A stretch of DNA of 56,388 bases from positions 310,001 to 366,388 of the forward strand of contig AP026179.1 in the NCBI GenBank assembly GCA_030295235.1, read 5' to 3'. The notes beneath the pieces were generated by a model. The model was not told where the DNA came from. It searched no databases and saw only the letters and a program-made list of their open reading frames with translations. Below, piece after piece: positions 1 through 47,000 of the stretch. This DNA is from Fistulifera solaris (lineage: Eukaryota). Every line of letters begins with the position of its first letter. Positions within the stretch are counted from its first letter, which is position 1. The position numbers and the translations under genes were made by a program.

Positions 1-966
1 GAATCCCCTTGCCGAGAACTGGATACAGGAACAAAAGCAAGATTGTGCTTGCCCCGGAATTCAATTTCAATACCTAAGCACTGAACGCGGTCTTGTCTCT
101 CATGTAAAGATGGGAGGTCTTGAACGTGATGACATTTTGAATCAACGGATACGTAACCCATGGTCGTGAAGCAGCATTGAACCAAGACGGCCAAAATCAA
201 TATAAGACTGCTTAATAGCAGCACTCGAGCGAACTTAGCTAATTCTAAATGCCGACTTGAAGTTTACTTCGTAGAGTTCACTTCGGGCTTGTGGGACAAG
301 CATTAGGCAACGCTTCGGAAAACGTTTCGACATCATGAGTCGTTACGACCAGTGGAAATGCTGCTAAATGCTTTAACATGATAATAACATGAAGCGTAGC
401 TTTAAAATATTCAACGGAATGAAGGTGGATTAACTGGTTGACAGTTGACAGGAATCAAGATTCATGATTGAAATCCAGTCGTGGCAAGGATCCATCTACA
501 GTTCAGGCTATAGTTAATAGGTAGTCAACGATCCGCAAAAATCTCTTTGACATCATGAATCATCATCATCGACGCTTGCATTGCAACTACTCCGAAAAAT
601 AACTGAATGTTGATCAGTAAGCCACGCCTGTACCTGATAGTTTTCGAAAACGAGCTCTAGCAGAACGACTCAAGTTTAGATAGCGTTCTGGATCGGAAGT
701 CGGAAGTGAATTTTGATTCAGGACTGGTTGCACTCGGCAACTCTATAATATTATAGTATTTATTTAATGACAACAGTTTTCTCAAGGCTACTTTCACTTT
801 CACCTTCCACGTCGTCACCAGTACACTTCGAGTCATAGTTCTTTTCGAATTAATATGATTTCGAATACGTGTCTCGTACCTGGTACCGAGCATTTGCATT
901 CTGTCTCTTCGCCAAAGACCTCAACAATAACTTGTTTTTCTTGTTTATATTATCCACTTAACATCA

Positions 967-1410: not shown

Positions 1411-1649
1411 TTTGGAATACCGATCGAGGAAAGGAAGAACTAACCCGACGGGCGACTCAAAGAAAAGCGGATGCTGCTCAACGTAATTATACTAGCAAAG
1501 ATGAGACTCATCAACTCCCACAGATTGAGGAAATAGATTGAAGCACGTCAATTGTTGTCCCCAAATAAGTAATGAAAGCTCCATAACTATGTTGGACTAA
1601 GCTTATCCAATGTAAAGTAAAAAAATAGCCAATGAAAAGCGCTTTCAGG

Positions 1650-4312
1650 TCATACTTCAGCCAAATCAACCTTCTTTTCTTCCGACGATCCTTGTGCATT
1701 TTTGCCCCGAGATCCTCCAACTTGCATATCCAGAAAAGCGAATCGTTCTCGTCGGATGCGGCGCCAACGTTTCTTGCTAGCTTTTATTTCTTTTTGACGA
1801 TTCTCTTCCTCTTCCCGTTCTTTCTTACGGGGATCTATAATAAGATCGAATGCTTCCTGCGGTGCACTCATCAGCGAGTCCCATAAGCTAAGACTTGCCT
1901 GCGTCTTCTCTTGATTGCGAAGCATTTCAGCTGCTTTCACTTTGATCATAATCTCATTTGCTTCGTCGTGTTTCTCTTGGGCCTTGAGAGATTGAGCCAA
2001 GTATTTGTACAAATTCACAGTTTCGTGATGATCGGGTCCAATGTCGGGAGATTCGATTCGCAGTCGAATCAGATGTTTGAAAATGAGTTCTGCCCAAACA
2101 TCCAGTCCGTGCTTCAAAAAGATACCGGCTTCCGCAAAATAATCAAGGATTTGTTTTTCATGATACCACTCTAAATTATCCAAAGGAGTGTTCGCCACAG
2201 CTTCTTCGGCCATGACAATAAGTTCCGCCATAGTCTTGCGGTCCAGTCCATCCAAGGCATCAAATGGATCGTCGAACGTATCGGTCTTGTACTCCAAACA
2301 ATGGCGGTAGTGCCGGAAACCATCTACGCCACACACCACCCACATGGGCCAGATGTGTACCTGAATTTCACAAATGTGTTCTTTGAGCTCCACATTGATA
2401 ATGCAGTCACGATATCCACCCGGTTTGGCGTCGTAGTCGGACTTTAAGGACGACATTTTGACACGGCGGATTAAAGGGCCAAACGAATCACGCGCCAGTT
2501 CGAGTAGTGCCAAGAAACTGGGAAAATCCTTTACGACCAACAAGGCTCGACAGTAATCCGTTACTTTTAGTAAATCCCCATTGTACTTTTTTCTCTGCTT
2601 TTCGAATGGCAGCATCGACATCTTTAATTGGGCCCACGCCCACCTCTTCCATGCCCAGATTTCCTGCCAGCTCTTTGCAGATTTCCACCAAAGTTGGTAG
2701 CGCAGTCTCCGCTTTTTTGATCATAGCGCGAGCCACATCTTTGCTTGTCATTGTTTCATATTCCGGTAACTTCTTTTGTGTCACTTCTTTGTCATGATTT
2801 TTGTATCCACCATCTCCGGGATCATTGAGGCCTGTCACACTGTTCAGGTACGGGTACGTCGGATCCAGTTGCAAACGACGAAAAACTTCATCATACTTGT
2901 TGCGATCACGTAGTAAGCTACAAATCATGCGATAAAAGTCCCACGAGTCTTTGATGACAGCGCGACGCTTGGCAATGGCTTCGAGAGCTTCATCGTCATC
3001 TTCGCCAGCATACGCCCCGGCATGAACTCGTTGTGTCGTGTAATAGATACCACCCGCGCCGCCGCCATGTTTCTTTCCATCCGGTAGTGCCCCGGCGCGA
3101 ATGAGATTGTGTGAATAGCCTGCCAAATTGAGATATTGATCTTCAAATTTGTCCAGCTCGTCTTTATTTAATTTCTCCTTACTCCATTGGTTCCGTGACT
3201 GCAAACAATCAAAGTATGTCAGCACAGCTCTAACTCAATTTGATGAATGTCTTTTTTAACGAGTATCATACGCACCTTTGAGTTTTTATTGCTGTTTTTG
3301 GCCAACATAAGGTTCATGGCTTCCCACCAAGCGGTCGCAGTGCGTTGCTCACACGCCACTAGAGTCCCAACGCGACCGTCCTCGCCAACCACTTCGAGAC
3401 CACGACGCGAACGATCCGGACTTGGCCGCGCCTGTACAATGCGTAGCTCTCGGATCAGTTGGGTACGATCCGTGCGTGTATGCGGTTCCGACATGAGACT
3501 CAGTTGCTGCGTTGATGTATCCAAACGATAAATGAGAATACCTTCGGGGACACGATTGTACCGATTCTTTTCCGAAACTCTTTTTCTTTTTGCCGAATTT
3601 TTTCTTGTTTGGTTTTGGCGTGTTCCTGGCGTGCCATTTCCGCAGCCGCTTTTCGAGCGCGATACTCGATCATGGGATCAATGGTGGTGGTGACGGCTCC
3701 GGTGTCAGTCTGTTTGCCGCAGCAAAACCACCCTTTCTTTGTTTTGGGCGCAACGACATGTACAATGGCGGAAGGAGTGGGACGTACCGGCGGCGTCATG
3801 CGTGCACGCATCGTATCGGTCGTTTTGATACTGGAATCATCCAGAAATTCATTCAAAAGGGCCACTGACGCTTGTAATTCAATAGCATTCTGACCTTCGC
3901 CGTCTTTGGGAGGCCAGGAATAAGCAGGATCGACAAATGCCGCCTCAAGAATGGTCCCTGACGGAAAAGCGAGTGACAGAGAAGTTTCATCGGCGGCATT
4001 CTGTTGTTTCTGAGCATCAACAACGGGTTGCAGAATATTGCTGGTGCTTTCAGTACTCTTCATTTTACTGCAAGTTCTCTCTAACAGATTGTTTTTTACG
4101 ACCGATATTTCATCGCTCGCTGTATGTCTCGTACGCTCTTCATCATCATGAGATGCGACTTGAAACACGCGAACTTGATCTGGCTCCACTTGCTGAACTT
4201 CTTCATCGTCCGACGCGGCATCATCCTCGACCGATGATTCCTTGACAATCTTTGTTGACTTTCCGAGAAATAGCTCTGTCACGGAATTAAAAATGGAAGG
4301 TTCCGTGGCCAT
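1650..4312 (-). CDS. PH-like domain + RelA/SpoT-like nucleotidyltransferase + TPR-like C-terminus
   Basis: Joins ORFs 3500-4312, 3219-3524, 2488-3225 and 1650-2621 via apparent indels in T-runs (~3570, ~2590) and a GT-AG intron 3199-3275. PH-like end (RRGLEVV..TLVACEQRTATAWWEAMN). RelA/SpoT-like motifs GPIK..AIRKAEKKY.GD..VTD, GGYRD, CEIQVH. GPDHHET TPR-like segment. Confidence 0.75.
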
Positions 4313-5255
4313 GTTTTGTGCTTGTGCTGGAAGAGATTCAAAGTGTAGCTTTTAAATGACAAACAACAGAAGGAAGGTTTCTGTTGTTGCCGTACAAACG
4401 AAAATGATCGAGGCCAGGCGCAAAATGAATGGAATGGGGCGGTTCAAACTACGAGTATGTAACCGTTGGCCTTTTTAAGTATTCTCGAATACATAGCAAA
4501 GCATTGGACTTTCAACGGTTTGTCATCTTTTAGTGAATGAAGGCACGAAGTACCGGATCAGAATCCTGCGAATGATTATTTAGCTGTATGACTGTCTCAG
4601 TATCCATGAAAATTTGCACTAGGGTCCAGTGTGTAGTATCAACTTTATGTGACTGCACATCAGTCACGAGAGGCGGGTTTCAGTAACTGCGGAGTATGAG
4701 GCTGCTTCATCTGGCATGCAGCTAGGATTTTTCTTTCTCTCTACCCGGTAACGAGCGAGGCCGTTTTGACGCAACTAGTCATTCGTCGATCAATGATTTA
4801 AACGTACGTCACGGTCGACTTTGAAAAGAAGTGACGACATGCCCGACAGCAGTCAATGACAATCACAAAAGCTAACTGACCCAAGTCGTGACCACTGGCT
4901 TGATAGGATGTAGAGGCTCGATTGGCATTGTTCCGCTAGTCTGCAGTGCTTTGCGTCGACATCCTAAACTTGATCTCAATCTTGATGTAGTCTAAAAGAC
5001 TCTGGAGGAACAATATTTTACTTGTATACTTTTGTATTTTACGTGATTATTCGCAAGGATTGAGCATCGAGCTGTACTCAACCAAGCTAAAACCAAGAGC
5101 CTGGTATTATTGATCACGATATTTGTTTACCCTTGTAGTTTAACACATGTTGGTCGTAGAGTAAAAAGAAAAGGAACACGGATTTTCACGGGGCCTAATA
5201 AAACAAAACACAACGTGACACTTGATTCTTGTTTGAAATTGCGGTGCTTATTTCG

Positions 5256-5587
5256 TAGACCTCTGTCCGTTCTCCGTTTAACAGGGAATTCCCAACTGGG
5301 ATCCCAGTTCAATTCCCTTCCTCGTTCATTTTCCCAATTCCCTGTTTAACAGGGAATGAGTGGGTGGACGTCTGACCGGCAATCAGAGACCTTTATTCCT
5401 TTGTTTGCGCGGTAAATCAACAGAAAATCTCTAATCTAAAGCGTTAAGGATTAGGGACTGACTACCATATTTCGTAAACGGGACTCATTAATGCGAACAG
5501 GGAATGCTCCCAGTTCACTCCTTGTTCGATCAAAATCCCTGTTCACTCCCTCCCTGTTGGAGTGAACTGGGAACGGACAGAGGTCTA
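5256..5587. mobile_element. Non-autonomous hAT-like MITE, 332 bp
   Basis: Perfect 17-bp TIRs TAGACCTCTGTCCGTTC (5256-5272 / 5571-5587) and perfect 8-bp TSD TTATTTCG (5248-5255 / 5588-5595). Internal repeated motifs ACAGGGAAT and CCCAGTTCA. An 8-bp TSD with TAG termini is typical of hAT elements. Confidence 0.9.
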
Positions 5588-5640
5588 TTATTTCGTACCA
5601 AGGAGGATTTTCTCGCTTCGCGGATGAATGAATAGGCCAA

Positions 5641-5675
5641 GTGAACCGTGAACCGTGAACCGTGAACCGTGAACC
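5641..5675. repeat. (GTGAACC)5 tandem repeat
   Basis: Five perfect 7-mer copies. Confidence 0.9.
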
Positions 5676-6886
5676 GTACCTAGTAATCAGTAATCAGCGA
5701 AAAAGACCGCGCTGTTCGCTCTTCCAAGAGAAAACCATGATGGTCACGATGATGATTCATGATTCACGGAATAAGATGCAACATGCGACAGAGACACAAT
5801 CTTGAGTCTTTCTTGGAATGCAGTACACCTTCGTGCGAATCACTCGGAAGCCCAGACCTCAAAATCGGAAGCCAACGTTTCATTCGTTTGTTTCTTGGTA
5901 TGTTTCGCAGTCCCGCGTACAGTCCTCCATAAGAGCGAGCATTTCGTGTGTCTCAGGTCTCAGGTCCCAGAGGGAGGAATACGATGGTGTGGTTCCTGCC
6001 CACGCAGTCTGTGGCCAAATGTACATTCTTCGCCTCCGCTTCCGCCGACGCCTTCGCAGAAAGACTCGAAGCGGCTCGGCTGCATTCACAAGATGCATAA
6101 ATGCAAAAATAAAGAGGCAGGCAGTGGGTGATAAAAATTCCATGGTTTTATGTTTAAATTTTTAATTCCTGTTAGTTATGAGTTATACAATTATAGAGGG
6201 CAAAAGACTACGGGTGATCTTGTACAATACACTTGAACATACCATGTGAATGTCGTGTGTCGTCTTCCTCAAACGCTAACCAGGTACAGTAGAAAGAAAT
6301 GTCAGGTCCAGGTCTCACTGGCTCGACGAATTTGACAGAATACGGACTACAATAAGTTCTCATCCAATTTCAGTAGAGAAAGGAGATGAAGAAATTTATC
6401 GGCGATCTCCGTTCACCGTTCACCGATCACCCCCCGCATTCACTCTTCTGATCGTCAAAGCATCCTCTACCCTCTACTCTTAGTTACGCGCGGAATAAAT
6501 CAATGTCCTGTCTACGTCATTTTCCCTAATTAGGGTCGTAGAATAACTAGCAACAACACTTGATAGTTTTAGTTATTGCTCAACTTCAGTTAGTCCGATC
6601 TCCCGTGTAGAAACTTTATTGAAGTTTGGGGAAACCTGTCTTCCAGTGTTTAATGTCTCACTTTTCCGGACCAAACGACTAAGCCCTTTCTTCTACTGGA
6701 TTCGGTTTTGGTGTTTTTGCGTTTCTGCACAGTTGACTCTTTCTGCTTCTTCTACTATCACATTCCCACACGAATTCAACCAACTTTTTCACCCGAAACA
6801 TCACACAAAATACAAATAATAATTATCAACGACTCCATTCATTTCCTTTTTTCATCAAGATACCCAAGCACATCGCTAAAGTCAAC

Positions 6887-9075: not shown

Positions 9076-9136
9076 CTACAGATTTGGCGCCACCACGCGT
9101 ATCACTTCAATTTCACTATCGTCGTCATCAATATCA

Positions 9137-9167
<31 letters not shown>

Positions 9168-11312
9168 CTTCTTCTTCTTCTTCTTCTTCTTCTTCTTCTT
9201 CTTCTTCTTCTTCTTCTTCTTCTTCTTCTTCTTCTTCTTCTTCTTCTTCTTCTTCTTCTTCTTCTTCATGCAGTGGGGTACTTTGTGCATCGAATCACGA
9301 TTCTCGACAGGGAAGCCCATGTCCAGGCTTCCCATAATAGACGACAAGGTGAGAGGATCCGTCCAAATTTTCTGGTTGCGGTGAATTTCCAAGTCGCGTT
9401 CCACTCCCGGGGCAATGTCAGGAAGCTGTCCAAGCAAAGCTGATTCTGTTGCTGCCTCAATCGCATTAACTTCCTGGTCCTTAGAAATTTTTAGGGACTC
9501 GCAGTGCGCCCGCACCTTTTCCAAAGTCGATTTCAACTCTTCATTACTTGTCCAAAGCATAAAGTATTTTCGTTCCGTAGGGCACCGACACATGAAATGA
9601 CTGTGACGCAAGCAGCTCACTTTCGACTGACTACACTGGCACGCCACTGCCGAAGAGAAGCATACGTGTTTGCAAGCATGACACAATCGTCGATCATCAT
9701 AACTTGCGCTCTTTTCGTCAAGTTGGTCTAAACTGTTGCGAGGAAGCGCAATGACGTCTGATACATCACGAACGCCATCATCGCTTAGCTTTTTGCGCAA
9801 ACGAAGCTCTTCCTGTACCACACGTTCCAACTCATTCAACAGACGACGACAGGTCGCGTAGGATTTCACGTCTTCCAGATGATTGGCCATCGTAAATGTC
9901 AGACGGTCCTGTGAAAATACAGCCGGCCGAGAAAAGGAGCGATAGCGTTCGTTCGCTTCAGAACCATATGAAATCCAATCTGGCGTAGCAAAGTTCACCG
10001 CTTCACCAACGTTCGGACCAAGACTAAAGCCAGAATGAAAAGACCTGGGAAACGTGACCTGTGGAAAGACAACAAGGTGAGATGATACAATGTGGCTTCT
10101 ATGCGATCCAGATCTGTAAACTTACGACAAATTCTCCTTCATATTGCAATAGCTTACTGACTACCACGTCCGCATTTTGAAGGAGTCGTGGACTAAACAT
10201 GGTAGTAATGTGATGAAGCAGATCAGGAACATCTCTCATCTTCATGGAAAGATAGTTCTTAAAGACGCGCTCGAGACCTTCCGCAGCTTTCTTCTCCCCT
10301 GGAACACCGTACCACTGCTTGGGTGCGCCTTTGTGGTGATAATTGATGCTGTACATGTAGTTATCTTCATTGTGCCAGCAGAAAGTCGTAAACAACGAAC
10401 CAAAGTACATCCAGGGGCAATTGACACCATTGATACCGACTTTCACATATTGCAAAACACTTCCCGGTGCACTCGGTATATTGTTTAAATTCCACCACGT
10501 CTCCTTGTAATAATCTTCCGTTCCAAATTTGGGTTCCGGCAGATTCATCTTTTCGGCATTTCTGGTTCCGTGCACACTTCTACCCCGTTCCGACAGCGGA
10601 AAGCCCGATCCAAAGTCATGAGTATCCACATCATTCCCGTACTCGACTGCCACTTCCTTGGTGTGTGTCTCTACGACATCCCAGTAATCACGTTCTAAAT
10701 TATCGGGTGTGAATTGTCGACGACCGTCGCTCGCATCCGTGTGACGAGCCAGCAAATCATGATCCGGATAATGTGCATTTTTCCATGCTTTCGTGCGTTC
10801 ACTCGAGACCTGTAAATACTCTTTTGCCGCGTAATCATTGCCATCCCCGAAGCTGACACCTTCTTGCAATCGATGTAGCATTTGCAATTTTGTAGCGAAC
10901 GTTTTCTGATTTCGATCAATGTCAATGCCTGTAGCGGAAAACGCGAAGAAATAAGAGAGAATATAAGAGATGAATAGGTAACAATGAAAAGAACAACTGA
11001 CATCCTGTGCGACTAACCAAAATAGCGAGAAGGATTCCATCCTTTCGGAGGCACAATTTTACAGATGCCGTAACGTTCCGCTACTCCCTGTATCTTAGCA
11101 ATATAATCCAGCGGATTGCCTTCCATCTCTTCTACCGTAGGAAAGAAAACAGGAGCCCATGGAATATCAAGTTTCCCTTGACGCGTTCGATCGAGTTTGG
11201 AATTTTGGATGGCTTGCGCTAAATAGCGCTCTTCTGTCGCGGTAGCAAATTGAAAGTAACTCGGAGGACGCCTTCTGCGTCGCTTCGCGGCGCGGTGATT
11301 CGCGGTGCTCAT
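9076..11312 (-). CDS. KDM5/JARID1-like histone demethylase (JmjN, JmjC, C5HC2 zinc finger)
   Basis: JmjN (APVFFPTVEE..YGICKIVPP); JmjC with Fe ligands in CWHNED and TFPRSFHSG; C5HC2 finger (CHACKHVCF..CQC..CLRH..CRC). Introns 10929-11017 and 10059-10125 restore the frame. The C-terminus is probably in the poly-Glu frame ending at 9076. Confidence 0.9.
9138..9267. repeat. (CTT)43 / (GAA)n microsatellite in the 3' end of the JmjC gene
   Basis: 130-bp perfect trinucleotide tract. Confidence 0.95.
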
Positions 11313-30426: not shown

Positions 30427-33400
30427 CTAATCAACAATCCGTTTCAAGATCTTGTGCAACAGACGCTGAGCAACAGCGTAAGTAGCTTCTTGGTTTCTTG
30501 CCAGAACTAGGCGGTATTTCGGATCCTGCTTACTGAATCTATTGCGATTGGAGTTTTCAACAAGTATGTGAGACCGGCGAGAAGAGACGACGTCGTAAAC
30601 AGCTTGCAGACGCTTCTTGTTTTCTTTCGACTTGCAATAGCCCTGTGTAAAACGTGAGAGATAGAGATAATGCGAGAGGAGCAGCAGTAAAACGTACCAT
30701 CAGATCCACGTTTTCCTTGAGAGACTTCAACAACAATGCAACGGAAAGGCTAAAAACAATTTCCTTGTCGCGGAACATTTGAAGCAAGTCCAAGTAAATT
30801 CGAACGCCAGTGAGTGTTGCGACCGAGTTTAAATGTTCGTCGAACCGTGCAACGTTCGATAATGTCAAAAGGATCCACTCCAAGAGCTCAACATGCGGAA
30901 GACTCCGATTGCAGCTTCTCACGAGAGAAAAAAGAATATCGGGCGCTCCTGCGCGCGTGAATGCTGTGCAACAGTGATGTGAATAACGAGTGGCACGTTC
31001 AAGAAACTTAATCGAGTCAAGAATGTCCGAAAGACCCGAGCTCTTTCGCAGCCTGTTCAAGGCTCGCTTAGTCTTGTTACATAACCGAAGATCAGGATTC
31101 ATTGTCGAGTTATTCTGCGCGGCTTCAATTCTCTGCAATCGGCTTGCCGCTAAAGGATCCTTTGCGCGAACAGAAAAACCACGGAATGCGGCTTGAAGTT
31201 GAACGAAACCGGCTGTCATTTTTCGGAATACCTTCTGCATTCGACACTGCTTCCAGCATAAAGCTATTTTTCTGGCGGATATATGCTCCAGCATGCGCCG
31301 AAAGTGTTCTCGGTAACGGCATTGGATGATCCGGGCAGAGCGCTCTTTGCAGAAGCTTATTGCGAGATGTTCCTCTCTGCACGATTCAGCGTGCTTTCTA
31401 CCCAACCAGCCACGGAACAGAGATTGGATAGTCACGGCAGAGAGCTCCATACAAATGAAATACGTAACACTGACATAGGCACGCCATGCTCCCTGAATTT
31501 GAGTAGCGGCGAAATGCTGCAATGCCAAATCTGCTCTTTGGATGTGACCACGGACAACTCTTTGCACCTGGGTGATGGCTATTTTCCGAACAAGAAACTT
31601 GGACCGGAGAAGAAACATCCTCGTTGTGGCTTGAATCTTTATAGCGCTAAATGATTGTCTCGTCAAGTGCCTTTTGACTATAGCACGTCTTGCTATTGAC
31701 TGAAGACGTACTATGGCAGCCTTTCTCTGAGCACCCATCGATATTGCGATGAAGCGACGGGCAGCTGCCTGGATCTGAATGCAACTCAGGATAGCCATCA
31801 TGTAATCGACATGCTTTGTATAGCATCTCCAGGTTTTCTGAAGTTTCGTGGCAGCGCGAACACGCCGCGTAGAGGCTCGAACGAGGCAGTCCCTCACAAA
31901 GCGTTGAAGAATTATGGCTGCTGATCCTTTTGCACGTGACTGAGAAAAGCGTTTTTCATTCTATACATACGAACGACCGATTGAATCCTTATAACTGAAT
32001 TTCTCCGCTCAATAGCCGCCTGCCTTGCCATCCACATCCGTGCAACAGCCTGGACAATGACGATATCAACCAATTCGATGTAGTAATCGATTCGGGCCAC
32101 ATGCCCCCTGAATACACGTTGAATTTGGATGGCACTCACTCTCACATTCACCGTCTCTCTTCGCACAAGATAGCCACGGAATCGGCTTTGAATGTTTTGC
32201 GCGGCTCTTATCTCATTGTTTCGAGCTACGACCATCATATTCATAGCACGTTTTGCGAGCCAAACCCGGCATGCGCGTTGAATGATCAAGAGATAAGCTC
32301 TTCTTCTCACAGCCAGTTGACAAGACAACCATTTCCGTACACAGGACTGGATTCGGATTGTGCGAGATCGAATAAGTGAATACCTTTTCGTAGCTATGTA
32401 TGACCGACAGATAGTTTGCGCGAAAATGATTTGCAGCCGCATAAACTGGTACTTCGTTTTTGCTGACTTTTGCCGGGTCCACGCTTGAAGAACACTAGCC
32501 GCTTTATGCAATCGCAATATTTCGTTCCTCGATCTCATTCCTCTGATGCGCGATTGTAATCTCTTGACACCCAAGTCGACTATGGGCAAAAGTTTGGTAA
32601 GATATCTGTTTCGTAAAGAATAACTTCTCCAAGTTGCTTGAAGGGAACAGGCTGCATAAACAGCATTATGAAAATGCTTACGCGCTTTCAAGCTTCGCCA
32701 ATAATTTTGAATAACAGTTGCGTGTTGTCTCTTCATGTAAAAAAGCAGAACGTGCAACGTAATACCTATATGCCGTCTGTATGCGTAGGCAGGCGCGCAA
32801 GAGGATACTTACACGAGATATGGCACCGTGTCGGCGCCAAGCACTCTGGATTCGAGTGGCAGCCTGGCGTCTCGACTCTATATCCTTCTCAATAAGGATT
32901 TTTACTCGATATCGAAGATAAGCGATCTGATTTGAAGAATCAAATAAGTTCGATAAAACTGGAAATGAAATAGGATTTGTTCGGCAAAATACATACCTGG
33001 ATACAACGAGCTAAACGATTTTCTTTGTGAGCCTTGCGAGCAAGAAGATGAGTTTTGGTCTTTTTTTGCAAAAGTAATACAGCTTGACGGCGCTTCTTAT
33101 ATTCCTGTCCTGCAAGGAAGCGCCTGGCTAAAGCTTGCACAGTTATAATATCGATGAATGCGAGCTGGAGATTGACCTGAGCCAGGAACCCTTTCCAAAT
33201 CCGCTGAATCTTACATGCGGATTGGACCATTTTAGTGTAACGACGAGCTCGGAAGGCTTTCCATTGCTTTAGGATAACTGATGAGGCCGCTAAGATCAGC
33301 TTTTGATGCAATCGCGAAACATTATTACGCCACCAATGCTGAATTGCGACGGCTGCATCGTCTCGAATCATTTGCTTGACCATCATACGAGTCCACCACA

Positions 33401-36001
33401 ACTGAATGATCATTGCTGCGTTAATCCTCTCCGTTACGACTCCCGTTCGTTTTGAAGCCAAGAAACGGCGTACATGTTTCTACCGAGCTGTGAGATTTAC
33501 TACAACTACTATACAAATTAAAATCATGATCATTCGCTTACCTGGATAATAACCGCCTTCTGATGTGTCTGTTCACGGCTTAGTCGCAACAGGGAAAACT
33601 TGTTCTTGTATCGGAGTACAAAGTTCTCTAGCACGGCGACTGCTTTCGCATAAGTACAGCGCTGTGAAGAATAGTACACTTCTCGATGTATCTCCCACGC
33701 ACTCCAGATCAACCTTGCAGCTTCTTTTCGTCGCAGCTCCATTTTCCGCTCGCTATAAGCCCGATAGGCAAATTGAATCAAGCGGGTCGCTCGGTCTTCC
33801 GCACTGGACGAAAGTAAACGAGAGCAAAGACAAGTTAACGCAAGCAACATGGATTCTTCAGAAGGTTTAGCTGGGATGATTTGGTGCGGCATTCCACCCA
33901 AACGAACTAACACTTTGTTAGCACGCTTCGCGTTTTCCTTAGCGGAATGCTCGGAGTAGTCGATATCCTCAATACGTAGAAGCCGAGGATGGTAATAATG
34001 TATCAATATGCAAACAGAGACTCCATCAAAGAAAGATGATGTCCAATTTTGTACAGACCGACCGAAACGACGACACACCAAATCAGCCCATATTAGCAAG
34101 CTGCCCTTGAGATCAGGTGGAACAAAGGGGAAATTCGAGAATGAACGAAGTCGCTCGAGTCGTTCAATCTCTTCGTGCACTCTTTCCACGGGTAGCAAAT
34201 CATCCAAGCAAGACTTTGCTAGAAGAGTCCACAGCAATAAGAATACTCGATCGCGATACCCATCGACAATATGATGAGCCAAAACCTTACTGTCCGGTAC
34301 AAGATGCATCAACTCTCCGAGGACACGTTGTAAATTACGTATTTTTTGCAGACGGGAGCCGGCTGGAATTTCCAATTTCTGAATCAGCTCAAATCGAGGC
34401 AAGTGCAATAGTTCTTCGGCCCAACGTGCCAAGCGTGTCCCATCTCGTAAATCAGTAGCGAGATTGACAATGCGAAAATCAAGTTCATCGACTACCGACT
34501 GCTGATACACCACTTTCAAACCTTGTCGTTCCAGATGGCGAGCAAAATTACCCTGGCCATGGAGGACAATTCGACTCAGTGCGTTTAAAATGTCTTTCAT
34601 TGCTTTGTACTTCGAATTCGCGTTGAAAAGGGGTTGGTCAAAACAATGAGCCTGCGTTGCTTCTTCCAGAAAGAAGAAAAGCACCAGTACACGATACAAT
34701 ACGAGCTGCCGCATCTCCTGTTTGTAGTCCTTTTCGAAGCGACCCGAAGGGACTTTGCATTTTCCTCGTGTATACTTTTTGAGAAGTTTCCGATCGAACA
34801 GTAGACGATCCAAGATGAAATCTTTCATGGTCATCTTGTTGGGAATATCACCCAACATCGTTTCGAGACCAAGCCGAAGCCACTGCGGCTGAAAGGACTG
34901 AAGGAGCTCCATGACCTCGGCACGAACAGTGAGATCCGCGTGAATATCTTTGTCGGTGCGAATAGTGACGCGGCCAGTCGAAATTTCGGAATGGAGCGTG
35001 TCGCGCGTGGTTGACATGCTGACAAAAACGGCTCGTGCTTTCAATCGCGCCTTGGCGTATCGTTGATGCCATTGCAGCGTATCTGCTTCGTCTGGGGGAC
35101 ACAAAATGTAATTTAGAAATGTAGTGAAGGTTTCTTCTTGTTGACTAGCCCACGCTTCCTTGTTTTTTCTTTTCGTCGGCACTTGTGGTTGCAGTCGGAG
35201 GCATCAATTGAATCGGAGACATGATCGTTTTTGCTTTTACTTTTCCCATTCGTGCTTTTTTTCTGAGAGGAGCGACCGGGCACAAAGCTACTTTGTTTTC
35301 GAGGGATCGGTGGTTTCTTTGGTGGTCTTGTTCCCTGCGCGGCTTCGCAAAACACACTAGAGAGATCCATGCAAACCCCGGCTGACTTGGTAGTGCTGGG
35401 AGGCGTCATGACCGCTTCCATGAGCCCTTTCAACGCGGCATCAAGACTCGCATCACCTTGTGATGTAGAAATTGGTTCCGGTGGTAGATTCTGAGGAATA
35501 GCAGACGTATCAATGACCAAAGCTGGCGCCGTCGAACTAACGATCGTCGGAGGTACATTGACTGGAGCAGGAGAGTGTCGGGGTGCTTCCGTAAATTTCT
35601 GCAAAGTTGATTTGAAAATACTTGATTTAGGTTTTGATTCTTTTATTGCGACTGGATTGCTTTCCGTAGAACCGGGTATCGCTTTGGAAGATAGTATTTT
35701 TGTTGTGTTTGTTGTCATTGTCGAGAAAACGCCCGTTGTGGGTAGCACGGAGTTGTCTACAACCGGAGAAGATAGCGAAATGAAGGAAGAGTCTCCTGAC
35801 AATTGCATTTCTTGAGACAACATCGAGCGCGGTGTCAATGTCGCTCGAACAGCACGACGAAACGAAGGTGTAGCATTCTCTGTAGCCGTCCTATCTCCAA
35901 ATAATTGGGATTGCTTTTTTCTTTGCTGTCGACATTTTCTCTTCCTGGTTGGTGCGGCGACCAAGCGGTTGTCGTTTAGAAGAATGTAAGGCTTCCATCA
36001 T
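30427..36001 (-). CDS. ASPM: Abnormal spindle-like microcephaly-associated protein homolog
   Basis: Disordered N-terminus with D-box-like RQPLGRRTN. ASPM-type CH region (WLRLGLE, DFRIVNLATDLRDGTRLAR, HHIVDGYRD, NWTSSFFDG). Many IQ motifs and ARM-like end (RSCNRSLPH). Introns at ~33480-33541, ~32927-32996 and 30643-30697, plus several indels. Confidence 0.88.
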
Positions 36002-41024: not shown

Positions 41025-44000
41025 CTAAACCTCTGCCTCTTTCATGAGTGATCCCATGGAATCCGTTCGACTACTATTGTGCAAACCCGATGCTTCGTAA
41101 ATTTCACCCCTGTCAGCAAGAGGATCAACAGCATAGTTTGGCGGCTCGAGAGTCAAACTTTCTTCTGCTCTCATGATGGTGTTATCGACAAGTGTCTCGG
41201 ACGGTTCGGGCACATCATCCATTTCACCATTTGATGGCAGCTCTTCGCCATTCTGCACAATTTTGCTTAACTCAAGATTCCGAACAGCGTCACCTCCGTT
41301 TCCTTCCTCGATGCCTGAAGAATCCGCCGGCTCGTTTTCAAGCTTCTCTGTTGGCTGTGATTCGGAATATAAACCATCATTTTCGTTGTCGGTGGAAGCA
41401 TTTTCCTTTAGCGCAATATCTGGGGTCGAAGATACACGTGTAACAAGCATTTGGGTGAGACTCAAGATCTCTTCCTTTTGCAACCGATACCGCCCAGCAA
41501 AACTGGCGTGATCCACTGCATTGAATGCAAATGGAAGGCATCGAAACTGGAAAACCCATTGAGCAGCTCCTTCAACAAGTCAGTAAATTTTGCATAAATG
41601 ACTTCGTCTGCGTGAGTGTGGCCATACTCTGAAGCGAGACGCTCGACCTCCAAATACTTTGCTATGAGTTTCCGCGTTTCTTCCATTACTAGTTTCTGCC
41701 CTGTAGTTGTTCGAATTGGTTTACCGTCGTCGGAAGTGTGAGCGTCAAAACCTTCACTCCTAGCGGCAATCTGCAAAATAAAGCGATTCAGCCATTTTCT
41801 TGCATACACGGCTGTCTCAATATGGTCGGGTCTGTCAATACAAAAGGGATTTTGAGAAAAATTTGCAAAAATAGCAAGCTTTCAAGCAATACGGTTAAAA
41901 ATACTCACGCTCTCGGCAATGGCTCTTCTTTCTTCTTCGTTCCCTGTGTTAGAAGTAAAGCCGCTTTCTCCCAATCTTGGATACCCGCCCCGAGGCCTGC
42001 AATAAGAAAGAGGATCCACTTCATCGAGATGGACAGACTATTGTTTGTTAGTAGTCGTCCGACAATATAGACCGCATTGCTTCCGATATAACGTCGACTC
42101 GTGAGCAGTTTTTCTTCTGCAACGAATTCCTCTACTGAGCTTAAATATTCCCTTTCAGCCATTTCGGTAACCTTGGCCATCGACGACTCGTCATCCGCTT
42201 GTGTTTCTTGTGTATTATTTGTGGCCACTGTCGGTTTCTCGGGGAAACCCCTCGCCGTCAAGCATCGACGCAACATGTGACAAGCCGTCGCCCAGACGTC
42301 TTCGCTACGCAGGGATTTGTCCAAATCCTTGACCAAAAATTCTTCCAATCGATAAAGGCCACGGACGGCCACAGGTCCGTTGTCCGAAATAAGACAGTTG
42401 TTTAGAATTGCAAGAACTTCGTCAACGAGTGATGTGTCGTCAAAAACAATGATAGACCTCAAGCAGATGCTAATACACAAGTTCAACACCACATCAAATG
42501 TCGTGTCAAGCCAATCGGTACCTGAAAAGGGAACCTCTTCGACAGCTTCGTCGACTCTGTTCTTTGTGACTTTGGGAACCAAGAAAAGATCAATATCCTC
42601 TGGCAAAGTGGGTCGCTGACTCTCTTCGCTATCGATCCCAGTCTCAGCAAATTCCAAGACGGGAGTCAATATACCGCGAAAGATCAATTGTAGTGTCTGC
42701 ATACTGTCATCAGGACTCTTGCCTTTACATATGCAGCTCTTATCACCAGGAAAGAAATACCTGTTGATAATATGTTCGAGTGCCTCGATAGATTTCGTTC
42801 GAATAGTTAATCGTTCATCGCCAACTGCTTTTGATAATCCAAGCAGAATTGGCCACCACAATTCCAGTTCCTTTGTAGAAATGTCCGTCTCTAACGGAAT
42901 CTCGCTTGGGCGACGTCGTCCCCTTGGTATATCCGATTTGCTGGCTAGAAACTCTGCCAAGATAAGCAATTTATCAACTGCCATTGAGCTAAGATCATGG
43001 TTGGGACCGTCTACGAACCTCAAATAAGCTGTTGCACATTCAACAAAATGGTCATCCAAAACTCCGGCATGTTCCGATGTTCGACTTAGACATGGTTCAA
43101 TGGCTTGATTTAGAATTTCGCTGCTCATTTCTGCAATAGACTTATCTACATCCTGTCCACCTAATCCCAAAATCGACAAGAGAGGGACCCATCCGCTTCT
43201 CAAACCACCGCGATGAGCAGATGATTCATTTAAGTCCTCGCCGAACACATGAATGATGCGAGCAACGCAATTCAACAATAGCTCCTTGGTACTCATCTGT
43301 TTTGATCGACCCATAACAGTCTCGAGTGGTTTTAGAAATCGCTTTTGGAATTCAAACACTTCTAGTTCTTCGCGTTGCAGATACTGAATACTCATCTGCC
43401 GAAAAGAATCGACTGCGTACATTGCAAGCGCTGGATTTGGATGTAGTGCCGTTTCGGTAAGATGCTCCGCTACAATGCTCCAGAGTTCCGCGAACAACAA
43501 CCGTGGTCTCGAGTCCATGTTGTAGTGTGTAACCTCAACAAGCTTCTGCAGGTTGTAAATGTTAGGCTGGCTGTGATGAAATGGATCTTTGCCCGATCCT
43601 TTTGAGAGTTAGCCAGAAGGACGTGATGATCGCGATATGCAACTGCAGTCAAATCTGTCTTCGTCCCTAATGCAACTCCGGCCAACGCTCCAACTGATAT
43701 CTCCGACTTTGATACTCGACAAAGGTGAAGAACAAACTCTTTCACTGCCCCGGGGCTTAAGGACGAAGAACGCTCGTATATGGCCTCGATGATAGTCTCA
43801 GAAACAGCGTCGTAGACTGCTCTAGCATTTGCTTCGTCTATAGCCTTGGAATCCATTTCCTCTTCCAGTTGGAAGTCGTCGTCGTCGAAAAAGGTAGACT
43901 CGGCAAGTGAATCCTCATCAGTCGAATAAGATGCATCGGTATCGGGCCCGTTGAGCGACTCTCCATCTTCCGCCGCTGCACGGCGCCTTTCCTGCTCCTT

Positions 44001-47000
44001 TCGCTTGGCGCTCTTCGCTTCGAGCTTCGCCCGACGACGCTCGGCCGCGGCACTGGCGACGCGGTCATTTCTGGCCATCAGGTGAAATAGCTGGTGAAAT
44101 CGATTAATTTCGCTTAAAGCCTTAAACACATGCTCCCACGATCTACCAAGAAGCTCGCCGCTTTCTTTGGCCAGGCTCAACATAGTTTGCATACAGCGTA
44201 AGTGACGTGGCTCGAGTAGTCTTCCAGAACCCAGTTGAGTGAAACCAGCTAATGCGCCCATATAGGCATCCCGAGCAGTACTATTACCGCATAGACCAGA
44301 CGTTGTAATGGCAAACCGAAAACCAGTCAAACAAACCTCTATCGTTTCAGCGGCATTCTCAGCAGCAATCTCTAACTCGTCATCAGATGCAATGTTAATT
44401 AAAGAACCAGTCCCATTCGCCGACTCCATAGCAGTCGAAAATGCGGCCAATGCCGGGCCCCAAGCTACATCAAACATAGGAGAAACATACTCATCGCGTA
44501 AACCGCTATCTTCTGCCATAACGAACCGCTGTGTATGATGTCGACTTGGCTTGTCGGTCTTAGATTTGATATTCTTATGACTCACGTCAGACGGGCGGCG
44601 ACGCTTTAGCAGTGATTCCGTGGTTCGCAAAATATGATCACGTTCTTTTGAAAGTTGCTTTCCTTTGCGCGATCAGAATCTTCTTGTGCTGCAAAAAACG
44701 AAACAGTATTCGGGAGACTGACGACAGCTGCTCTCTCTCGTGCTTCGTCATCTTCCTTCAAACTAATCGGATTTCTCTTAATTCTGTCAAATATAGATGA
44801 GAGAAGATCTTCTGGCAAATCTTTGCCATCACAAATGCCACGGTTGTTTCGAATAAAGCCCTCTTTGGTCATCCGACGTTCTTCTTTGATAGCAGGATTG
44901 TGAAGGTCAGTGTTGAGCATTATGATCGAGAAAGACAAAATGAATGCAGCGTCCGCAGATGGGAAAACGCCAGCGTTTTGTTCGGTGAAGCGCTCTGCAA
45001 ACTTTTCCATGATTCGATCAATCTAGCGAGTTGAGCGCCAAAAATAGTGTGAGCATTTTCGAGTCAGCGTCCCAAACACGCGAGACAAAGTATTGCCCTA
45101 CCTTCTGAGCCTCACCCGGCAATCGAAACGAGCTGAGGAAATACCTAATGGCGTCATCAAAAGGAAGTCCTTCAAAATTTAGTAAACGCACGTATTCGTG
45201 TAAAACCTTGATCGAAAATCCGTTTTGGTATTCCACTTCACGACCAAGGTATTCACCGATTTGAGTCTTATCGAAAGCATCTTTTAGTTGTAAAGGTATT
45301 TCGCAACTTCCTTCGGATCTTCCCCGTCCAAATGTCCACACTTGACTGCATAGGCGATCCCAGCAGAAGGCTTCTGATTGAAACGTAAGATAATTTCTGT
45401 CTCCTCCTTACGTCGTTTGACCTTTGATCCGTAAATTTCAACGAGATTTCGCTTTTCATCGCCGTCTAAAGCTTCTTGGTCCAAGATCGAGCCGCCTTTC
45501 TGACTAAGAATATTTTCATCCTTTTGTTTTACATTTGCCGCCAAAGGCTCAATGATACATGCGTGTAAGCTGGCCAAAACCTGTCGGAGTGCCTTCATCG
45601 CCGTCAACCTCAACACTCGATTTTCGCTTCGCTGTTTTGCAATACGAGCTACACCTTGGCTTCCCATGAATAGTGTACTGCCGCGCGATTGTTCTTGCAA
45701 GCCAGAACGCGAAACAGTGGATAGTGTGTTGACGATCCTGTGGAAGAGATCAACAGCGCTGAGATCGCAGTCGTAATTCAAAAGATCTCAGCTAATGTTT
45801 TCGGATCTGAACATATTTCTTCGAACGTCTTGACGACTAGTGATTTGTGTTCAGCAGGAGAGTTCTTCGAGTCGAGAATGACAAAGAACACATTCGTGAC
45901 AAACGCCTCGATTTCATTCTTGAGAATAGATCGAAAATTACGAACTAAAGGCACGAAAATGCGGAGACTCAGATTCACCACGTCTGTGTTGTCTGAAGTG
46001 CAGTTTTTCAGAAGAGAAACACAGAGATAGTTCTTGATAGCAGTGTGAAATTGCGGCCCACTTTTCTCGATGAATTCTTTTGTGACATTCATGTGTTGAA
46101 GCACGTACAAAATGAGCTCCAATGCCAGGAGTTTTGACTCAAGAGCAGGATGAATCGCTGACGTAAAAGTAAATGCGCGTGTTCGTGTCCCGCTTCGCCT
46201 CCTCCATTGGTCAGCGTACTGCGACTACCTTGGGTAGCATCCTGTCTCTCATCCCATGTATCAGCGCTTCCACTCGCTTGCAATCCCACAAAGAACCTGC
46301 ACTGTCTACATCAGGTAGACTGCGCATACTGAGCTTGCAAAGCGACCGCAACACTAAGAACACGTCTCTGTGGTTCTCCGAAGGAAAATGGTCTTTGGTT
46401 GGCTCCATCTTATCCGTATCTGTGAGAACCACACGGTTAAAGACGCTTGTGGTGAGCTGTTGCAACGCAGCACGTGCAGTGGTGCGATTCGACATTGATT
46501 CGGTGGTTAAGTAAACATGGTAAAGCGTTCGAATCGATTGCAACAAATATCCACCATGGAGTAGCGCTTCTCCGTTATCTACGGTGCGACAGCCACTAAC
46601 CAAAAGAAACTTCATGGCAGCTAGTTCGTTTCGGTCAAGGCTGAGATCTGCATTGAATACGGATTGGGTAAGCATGTCAATGACGACCTTATTCTCCTGC
46701 TCGCCTACTCTACCAAGCGCCACAGATACACCATCGAGGCACCCGTGTGCCACCAGCTCCGAAGCTGCGTCGAAAACACCCAACAAGAGGAGCGAAAATT
46801 CAAGCTGACCCTTGCGGTCTTTCTTTTCGAAGTTGCGCGAGCTAGCATGGCCCCACATCGAAAATAAGTTTACAAACGCAGTAAGTGCACGCCGAGCGCG
46901 GTCCGCTGTATCACCCGCTTCGCCCATTACAGCATTCACGACGCGATCTGATTCGTCGGGTATCTCTTCTTCTTCTCCTTCTTCAAACAAGATATCCATC

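Follow-up and report, generated by a model that had tools for sequence, protein, structure and literature searches.

Enzymes of the RelA/SpoT type (RSH enzymes) are described from several settings. In Pseudomonas aeruginosa, a type VI effector has a toxin domain, Tas1/Apk1, that is a (p)ppApp synthetase (PDB 6OX6). The same superfamily includes the small alarmone synthetases (SAS) RelQ/SAS1 and RelP/SAS2, the synthetase domains of the long enzymes Rel, RelA and SpoT, the toxSAS enzymes CapRel and FaRel2, plastid enzymes of diatoms, and N-terminal domains of some fungal NLR proteins. We analyzed a stretch of 56,388 nucleotides from the diatom Fistulifera solaris (assembly GCA_030295235.1, contig AP026179.1, positions 310,001 to 366,388 of the forward strand), which we call the window. 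A gene on its minus strand, at 4312..1650, encodes a protein in which an RSH-type synthetase fold is predicted between a PH-like domain and a TPR segment. This is an RSH-fold enzyme in a new, eukaryote-specific architecture that current family models do not see, and we found no published description of such a PH-RSH-TPR protein in the full-text literature.

To our knowledge, plastids are the only eukaryotic compartment credited with alarmone chemistry. According to a 2025 paper, in the part available to us, every characterised RSH enzyme works in the bacterial cytoplasm (PMC12691689). The accessible portion of a 2022 review states that neither pGpp nor (p)ppApp has been reported from plants or algae, and that animals have ppGpp but no obvious enzyme to make it (PMC10107265). 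For Phaeodactylum tricornutum, the available text of Avilan et al. 2019 gives three RSH genes identified by BLAST (11099, 7629 and 33947), all with HD and synthetase domains (PMC6881373). These enzymes, PtRSH1, PtRSH4a and PtRSH4b, make (p)ppGpp, and at least PtRSH1 has a bipartite plastid presequence, according to the same text. The family described here occurs in the same kind of organism and has the same predicted superfamily fold, but has none of these properties and is not among the three genes. The terms PH and TPR are absent from the text of that paper as available, and none of its three genes has either domain. Earlier, Atkinson et al. 2011 had listed for P. tricornutum, in the part accessible to us, two Rsh1 genes and one unplaced "divRel" SAS, Phatr2 49781 (PMC3153485). 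If the latter belonged to the PH-RSH-TPR family, a divergent SAS in diatoms would have been in print since 2011. We take Phatr2 49781 to be, probably, the RSH4a locus.

The coding region of the Fistulifera gene falls into four frame pieces that align end to end with 25 full-length orthologues. Its catalytic core lies at 2286..2751 (this and all other features of the gene are on the minus strand), as located by Foldseek, VIA-align, a profile search of PDB sequences and residue conservation. Evidence for its fold comes from AlphaFold's prediction for an orthologue fragment (P0127), made from an alignment of 47 sequences. This model has a mean predicted local distance difference test (pLDDT) score of 82.7 and a predicted template modelling (pTM) score of 0.75; pLDDT is at least 90 for 248 of the 363 residues, and exceeds 90 from residue ~70 to 350. 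Compared with the PDB by Foldseek, the model gave 55 matches at E<=1e-3, and those among the matches listed are all RSH enzymes. Tas1 is first (E 7.1e-7), followed by RelSeq (4.4e-6), SAS1/RelQ (1.2e-5) and then Staphylococcus aureus Rel, RelP and ribosome-bound RelA.

A VIA-align search of 48,161 chains, in which Z differences within 1 count as ties, led to the same superfamily. RSH enzymes fill its first 11 rows (Z 7.5-11.4). The best are SAS2 (Z 11.4; 147 residues, 3.1 Å), CapRel (10.9; 139 residues) and Tas1 (10.9; 156 residues), and next come Rel (10.7), RelP (10.5), SAS1 (10.0), SpoT (9.5) and an exported Streptomyces SAS (9.4). Further Rel, SpoT and RelA structures occupy rows 9-11 (8.1-7.5). 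The first rows that are not RSH enzymes, RsfS-like proteins and other nucleotidyltransferases, follow at Z 6.6, and FaRel is listed at Z 6.0. Taken together, the RelQ/SAS1, RelP/SAS2 and long Rel/RelA/SpoT synthetase domains share the predicted fold at Z 10.0-11.4 over 138-147 residues and 3.1-4.4 Å. In a feature search of the ESM Atlas, the diatom clusters are followed by a bacterial cluster (score 0.93) in which 34% of members carry the Pfam domain RelA_SpoT (PF04607).

Sequence comparison becomes informative as the profile is broadened. A phmmer search of PDB sequences with the C-terminal piece from the window gave no matches. With a first profile, built from 25 close orthologues, Tas1 ranked first at E 0.9, and the alignment falls exactly on the Syn1/Syn2-like stretch. 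With a profile of 47 more diverse relatives (A3), Tas1 reached E 4.2e-4 and is the sole match that is not a TPR protein. A comparable gain was seen in structure prediction: the first AlphaFold model, of the full-length orthologue P0010, has a mean pLDDT of 57, with ~45-50 in the catalytic part, and gave weak Foldseek matches only (Tas1 at E 0.068, RelP at E 0.097). On these predictions, the catalytic part has a RelA/SpoT-type synthetase fold, with a resemblance far beyond chance. If the gene model and this fold are taken alone, we consider them to be very nearly certain.

By both sequence and Foldseek rank, the nearest relative is the (p)ppApp synthetase toxin Tas1 rather than a housekeeping (p)ppGpp synthetase. 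The best Foldseek alignment covers 194 columns at 22% identity. In the aligned stretch, Tas1 and the diatom family have in common the Pro-x-Lys form of Syn1, a Tyr-x-Gly-Asp element and the Asp-x-x-Arg spacing of Syn2. The contexts differ: in bacteria, Tas1 is secreted as a toxin domain and is paired with an immunity protein, whereas the diatom family consists of conserved eukaryotic multidomain proteins that also have PH and TPR parts. A supplementary list of 2,959 jackhmmer homologues of Tas1, which may be incomplete, contains in its available part none of five diatom genus names nor the word "Eukaryota" (PMC12691689).

Four sequence motifs correspond to Syn1 through Syn4 of RSH synthetases. 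The Syn1-like motif is at 2634..2599, the Syn2-like motif at 2564..2547 (Asp at 2558..2556), the Syn3-like motif at 2420..2403 (Tyr at 2414..2412) and the Syn4-like motif at 2369..2355 (Glu at 2369..2367). We counted residue conservation over the 47 diverse relatives, with the register taken from the Tas1 profile alignment and an hhalign comparison to Escherichia coli RelA. Both Lys residues of the Syn1-like motif are present in 46/46 sequences. The Syn2-like Asp occurs in 45/46 and the Arg three residues past it in all 46; the Syn3-like Tyr occurs in 43/45 (Phe in the other 2) and is followed by Arg in 45/45, and the Syn4-like Glu is invariant (44/44). The comparison to RelA keeps the motifs in register, pairing Lys with Lys, Asp with Asp, Gly-Tyr with Gly-Tyr, Glu-Ile-Gln with Glu-Ile-Gln and His with His, so that the Asp, Glu, Lys and Tyr positions are those conserved in the E. 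coli enzyme. In FaRel2, according to the part of the report available to us, D90 coordinates Mg2+ and Y128 stacks on the pyrophosphate acceptor, and both are highly conserved in SAS enzymes (bioRxiv 10.1101/2021.04.30.441581). The residues that serve Mg2+, the ATP phosphates, stacking of the acceptor base and catalysis in characterised RSH enzymes are near-invariant in the diatom family. As a pattern, this conservation looks like that of an active enzyme from a divergent, Tas1-like branch.

An earlier interpretation made from the letters alone (the sequence-only reading) had proposed a RelA/SpoT-like synthetase with substituted motifs. All the motifs that it quoted, including VTDYCR, GYRDC, EIQVH, KKGWFCCGK and GPDHHET, are on the minus strand where it placed them, and the RSH enzymes at the top of both structural searches agree with its assignment. 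The comparison by AlphaFold and Foldseek, which it had named as a check, matched the RSH fold. Its claim that there is no HD hydrolase domain also held: Pfam finds none in the four window pieces or the 25 orthologues, and the TGS and ACT domains are likewise missing from them. The Pfam RelA_SpoT search that it had suggested, on the other hand, gave no match. Its further proposals, recruitment to a membrane and a possibly non-canonical product, stay hypothetical.

Preceding the catalytic core is a highly conserved helical segment (2812..2991) that appears to be specific to the family. It corresponds in the P0127-fragment model to a long helix (residues 67-115) and the next elements, predicted at pLDDT >90, and it is outside the range matched by RSH structures, which begins at model residue ~155-165. 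Together with the replaced motif positions detailed below, this extra segment, the silence of Pfam RelA_SpoT, the missing HD, TGS and ACT domains, and a eukaryotic origin without plastid targeting set the protein apart from SAS and long Rel enzymes.

The gene itself is a single one, starting with the ATG at 4312 and ending with a stop codon at 1652..1650. Its coding pieces are 4312..3569, 3566..3276, 3198..2587 and 2585..1653, in three frames in all. The plus strand of this interval has short frames only (<=125 codons). A canonical GT..AG intron of 77 nucleotides (3275..3199) lies between pieces two and three, as judged from the sequence: the unspliced frame soon meets a stop, and the flanking exons align with orthologues. 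The other two transitions are frame breaks at runs of A. At the first (3567..3571), the run at 3571..3568 has four A where five are needed, i.e., it is one base short. At the second (2586..2592), which falls in the middle of the catalytic core, the run at 2592..2587 has six A where five are needed. The alignment of the four pieces with the orthologues is unbroken over both frame breaks and the intron.

We compared the window over 1500..4500 with read contigs from independent public sequencing runs of the same organism. One run contains 96% of the sampled words of the whole stretch and two further runs contain parts of it. The contigs span the intron unspliced and without joints; they therefore behave as DNA and are silent on transcripts. 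No differences from the window are listed beyond those at 2587 and 3567. At 2587, the extra base is missing from all covering contigs (depth 19.9 of 19.9 in X1 and 7.98 of 7.98 in X2), which brings the middle of the catalytic domain back into frame. At 3567, an extra base that restores the frame is seen in one X1 contig (11.7 of a summed depth of 47.4), and the remainder agrees with the window. When both homopolymer lengths found in the read contigs are applied, the coding length is ~861 codons. From this we conclude that the gene exists intact, with ~861 codons, and that an artefact of the assembly or strain accounts for at least the break at 2587.

The locus might instead be a decaying pseudogene in this genome, with both frameshifts real. 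The two breaks in the window itself would suit that explanation, as would the low share of the frame-restoring form at 3567, which occurs in one contig only; one allele or strain may really be broken there. On the other hand, both breaks are single-base length differences within A-runs, and the one at 2587 is not seen in any covering contig from two runs. All four pieces are free of in-frame stops, and their identity to the orthologue P0010 is 59-70%, except for 39% in the variable N-terminal piece. We consequently view decay of this gene as very unlikely. The mixed contigs at 3567 could reflect a heterozygous frameshift allele in a diploid diatom rather than an error.

The N-terminal half appears to hold a PH domain that is real but split, a conclusion in which we have moderate confidence. 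A 31-residue motif near the N terminus (residues 119-149; 3866..3958), invariant or nearly so in the 25 orthologues, is predicted to be strand 1, and the remaining strands and the C-terminal helix form a PH-like core at 3297..3551, as seen with VIA-align and Foldseek. In VIA-align, the full-length P0010 model matches PH domains at Z 8.4-9.8 over 84-102 residues: the C-terminal PH domain of pleckstrin (Z 9.8; 89 residues, 3.2 Å), those of Osh3 (9.3) and SKAP55 (9.0), and the split PH domain of PI3-kinase enhancer (PDB 2RLO; 8.5). These matches span model residues ~20..225. Given that they cover both the N-terminal motif strand and the core block, a split PH domain is the simplest reading. An insert of ~115 residues would then replace the loop between strands 1 and 2, which is the usual phosphoinositide-binding loop of PH domains. 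Foldseek PH rows have probabilities of 0.94-1.00 but E values of 0.025-0.07, and the Pfam models PH_17 (E 0.053 on a window piece; 3/25 orthologues) and PH_27 (3/25 orthologues) all stay below the cut-off.

Two features lie in the insert. One is a basic/aromatic Cys-Cys motif (3713..3739); the Cys pair is flanked by aromatic and basic residues in 23/25 orthologues, and is a candidate site of S-acylation. The other is a Lys/Arg-rich helix at 3569..3670 that closes the insert directly before the PH core, and that is supported by the alignment and by helix 99-137 of the P0010 model (pLDDT 72-78). The PH fold of PI3-kinase enhancer is likewise interrupted by a long insert; by comparison, the insert in the diatom protein follows strand 1 and carries the Cys-Cys motif and polybasic helix.

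Downstream of the catalytic core, the segment at 1920..2174 is a TPR of the kinesin-light-chain type with ~two repeats, and includes the motif at 2039..2019. The profile of diverse relatives matches the TPR domains of KLC1/KLC2 in the PDB at E 2.9e-10 to 2.5e-7, and VIA-align gives the KLC1 TPR a Z of 11.4. Pfam TPR_12 matches 11/25 orthologues (best E 7.1e-5), all under its curated cut-off. The protein ends in a conserved, highly charged stretch (1728..1835) seen in the alignment and predicted as a helix (691-718) in the P0010 model.

Regarding location, we checked N termini and Kyte-Doolittle hydrophobicity in the 25 orthologues and the window protein (26 proteins). None has a signal-peptide-like stretch (the best 12-residue mean in the first 60 residues is <=1.56), and none has a membrane-spanning stretch (19-residue means stay at or below 1.56). 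In all of them, the first 40 residues have a net negative charge, from -1 to -11. Diatom plastid proteins need a signal peptide of the endoplasmic reticulum type, and mitochondrial presequences are basic. The lack of a hydrophobic N terminus and the acidity of the first 40 residues make a cytosolic, possibly membrane-peripheral, location the best inference. The protein is, from its sequence, probably soluble and not plastidic.

Several parts of this architecture had been anticipated in the sequence-only reading. A TPR-like segment downstream was proposed there and can now be specified as the kinesin-light-chain type. The proposed PH-like domain was also matched structurally, but it appears to be split, with the Cys-Cys motif that had been placed upstream alongside it inside its insert. 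The absence of a signal or transit peptide was correctly called. The same reading had treated the PH and nucleotidyltransferase parts as one gene, and both are in a single open frame in 6/6 transcript-derived (MMETSP) orthologues of the alignment. It had also recommended a survey of phylogenetic distribution, which revealed the gene in pennate and centric diatoms and a relative in Triparma retinervis.

In that survey, the C-terminal 311 residues as a query retrieved 175 relatives of 546-2000 amino acids; the 120 matches listed are 556-874 amino acids long and 59-75% identical. Named organisms among the matches listed are diatoms without exception. Orthologues were found in the pennate genera Seminavis, Nitzschia, Pseudo-nitzschia, Cylindrotheca and Epithemia, and in the centric genera Skeletonema, Thalassiosira, Cyclotella, Discostella and Detonula. 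Full-length orthologues typically have 700-870 residues, with ~65-75% identity across their C-terminal half in pennate and centric diatoms alike, and several are transcript-derived open reading frames marked as complete. Their labels in the source databases are "hypothetical", "expressed unknown protein" or, for P0010, "PH domain-containing protein", and none of the 120 matches listed has a precomputed Pfam domain.

Searching 1.84 billion proteins with a profile of 25 orthologues extends the family to 579 cluster representatives (E<=1e-3). Bolidophytes are the sister class of diatoms, and a divergent subgroup includes a relative at 49% identity in the bolidophyte T. retinervis (Bolidophyceae). 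Searches meant to broaden the range of named organisms added Triparma alone, and apart from it gave diatom orthologues already known or metagenome proteins. Most relatives are metagenome proteins, and among those carrying an organism name we found no members beyond Ochrophyta.

Longer proteins, of 817-2549 amino acids, also have the C-terminal half (profile positions ~330-745) as their last part. These paralogues include P0135 (2549 amino acids), P0141 (1517 amino acids, a second gene in Cyclostephanos tholiformis), P0142, P0144 and P0146, and further lengths among such proteins are 1476, 1354 and 1181 amino acids. Their N-terminal regions have no Pfam match at E<=0.01. The occurrence of the C-terminal module (helical segment, RSH core and TPR) behind differing N-terminal regions fits a catalytic cassette with exchangeable targeting parts.

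Dozens of other cluster representatives (~160-470 amino acids; P0150-P0207 and similar) match only the N-terminal motif and the PH part (profile positions ~10-250). These may form a split-PH family of their own, or may be fragments of orthologues in which a variable linker follows.

These observations suggest a scheme in which the product of a nuclear diatom gene is a soluble protein of ~861 residues that is located outside the plastid and has three modules. The first would be the split PH-like domain, whose loop of ~115 residues between strands 1 and 2 has the Cys-Cys motif and polybasic helix. The second would consist of the family-specific helical segment and then the divergent RSH synthetase-fold domain, which by sequence is nearest the Tas1 type. 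The third would be the short kinesin-light-chain-type TPR and the charged C-terminal helix. If active, the enzyme would move the beta,gamma-pyrophosphate of ATP onto the 3'-OH of an acceptor, presumably a nucleotide such as ATP/ADP or GTP/GDP; the 3' end of an RNA seems less likely. Through its split PH domain, with an insert that is polybasic and may be acylated, the enzyme may be placed at a membrane, and the TPR and C-terminal helix may bind a partner or restrain the enzyme.

As a whole chain, i.e., an active ATP-dependent pyrophosphokinase of the Tas1-like branch that is held at a membrane via the split PH domain and controlled via the TPR and C-terminal part, we lean somewhat toward this scheme. 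A more specific version is that diatoms and bolidophytes domesticated a Tas1-like (p)ppApp synthetase toxin domain as a membrane-recruited cytosolic maker of a 3'-pyrophosphorylated nucleotide, (p)ppApp or a relative, that serves as a second messenger. This version we offer tentatively, and regard as rather doubtful.

A number of results weigh against an active RSH enzyme at a membrane. The fold is that of a predicted model, not of a solved structure. Pfam RelA_SpoT matches 0/4 window pieces, 0/25 orthologues at E<=1 and 0/23 divergent relatives at E<=0.01, and NCBIfam and PADLOC match 0/7. The hhalign comparison of the family profile to residues 180-400 of E. coli RelA is weak (probability 9.6%, P 0.0034). 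Canonical motif positions are replaced: the Syn1 Arg is Pro (as in Tas1), and the Syn1 Ser is Ala; in the alignment to RelA, the Syn3 Ser position is Asp, no residue is aligned to the Syn3 His, and the Syn4 Arg-Thr is His and a hydrophobic residue. The Syn2 Arg is 3 residues past the Asp, rather than 5. Additionally, the Syn4-like Gln (34/44) and His (36/44) are lost in the divergent subgroup. With these positions replaced, the donor, the acceptor or even the type of reaction could differ. Finally, the split-PH model has a pLDDT of 65-68 at strand 1 and 74-85 in the core, within a whole-model mean of 57, and the gene carries two frameshifts in this window.

The substituted motif positions and the silence of all family models would fit a catalytically dead or repurposed RSH fold, acting as a nucleotide binder or scaffold in a PH/TPR adaptor protein, as would the abundance of modules for protein-protein and membrane interaction. 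However, the Asp, Glu, Tyr and two Lys positions are kept in 43-46 of 44-46 diverse relatives, which is unexpected for a dead enzyme, and Tas1, which has the same Syn1 and Syn2 variants in the aligned stretch, is an active enzyme according to the material available on it. We find a dead fold improbable. Another idea is that the domain is a pyrophosphokinase of RNA or tRNA 3' ends like the toxSAS enzymes CapRel and FaRel2, and either brakes translation or acts as an antiviral suicide effector, the TPR and C-terminal part being its autoinhibitory sensor. CapRel is tied for second in VIA-align, FaRel is listed there too, and the acceptor-stacking Tyr and Mg-binding Asp that are needed for tRNA modification are retained. 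Moreover, CapRel has a regulatory C-terminal part on the same chain, and the introduction of the 2025 mBio paper, as available, says that CapRelSJ46 is activated by phage proteins (PMC12691689). The accessible part of another study reports RelA_SpoT domains at the N termini of fungal NLR immune receptors (bioRxiv 10.1101/2022.03.16.484565), which resemble the diatom protein in being eukaryotic and non-plastid. Given that Z differences within 1 are ties, however, VIA-align gives CapRel no preference over SAS2 or Tas1, and the sole significant sequence link is to Tas1, whose acceptor is a nucleotide. The strong conservation between pennate and centric diatoms looks like that of a housekeeping or regulatory gene, not of a fast-evolving immune gene. 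Unlike CapRel and FaRel2, the diatom protein has no toxin-antitoxin or defence context, is very highly conserved and has a TPR as its C-terminal domain.

Fungal NLRs with RelA_SpoT often end in kinesin-light-chain-like TPR repeats. The diatom protein has ~two such repeats only, Pfam found no NACHT or NB-ARC domain in the orthologues and divergent relatives, and the fungal domains, unlike the diatom one, match Pfam RelA_SpoT. Overall, modification of RNA ends is an unlikely role for this family. A further plastid (p)ppGpp synthetase of the RSH1/RSH4 kind is scarcely credible. Diatoms do possess the plastid enzymes PtRSH1, PtRSH4a and PtRSH4b (PMC6881373, in the part available), but 0/26 proteins of the new family have a signal peptide, and HD, TGS and ACT domains are missing. 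Moreover, Pfam RelA_SpoT is silent here, while the same text describes PtRSH4a/b as strongly homologous to bacterial synthetase domains, and its BLAST search gave only three P. tricornutum RSH genes.

The union of a PH-like domain, a divergent alarmone-synthetase fold and a TPR in one strongly conserved protein suggests that diatoms use bacterial-type nucleotide-modifying chemistry outside the plastid. If the domesticated-toxin version of our scheme is true, the protein would be without precedent as an alarmone-type synthetase at work outside bacteria and plastids. Regardless, this deeply conserved family, whose catalytic site looks intact, is a concrete, clonable candidate for alarmone chemistry in the eukaryotic cytosol, in algae of global ecological weight. 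The family also illustrates that motif reading and structure prediction can recover an enzyme family missed by Pfam, NCBIfam and PADLOC.

We now note two properties of the surrounding sequence. The 2.4 kb upstream of the start codon (4313-6700) has no long frame on either strand, the longest having ~119 codons. This region is presumably promoter or intergenic sequence, and the next long frame begins near 6737 on the plus strand. Elsewhere in the window are four more pairs of long, overlapping frames on the same strand, at 9102-11058, 30557-32808, 33530-35997 and 41905-44672, all on the minus strand. These pairs suggest that single-base indels, or very short introns, may be frequent in this assembly.

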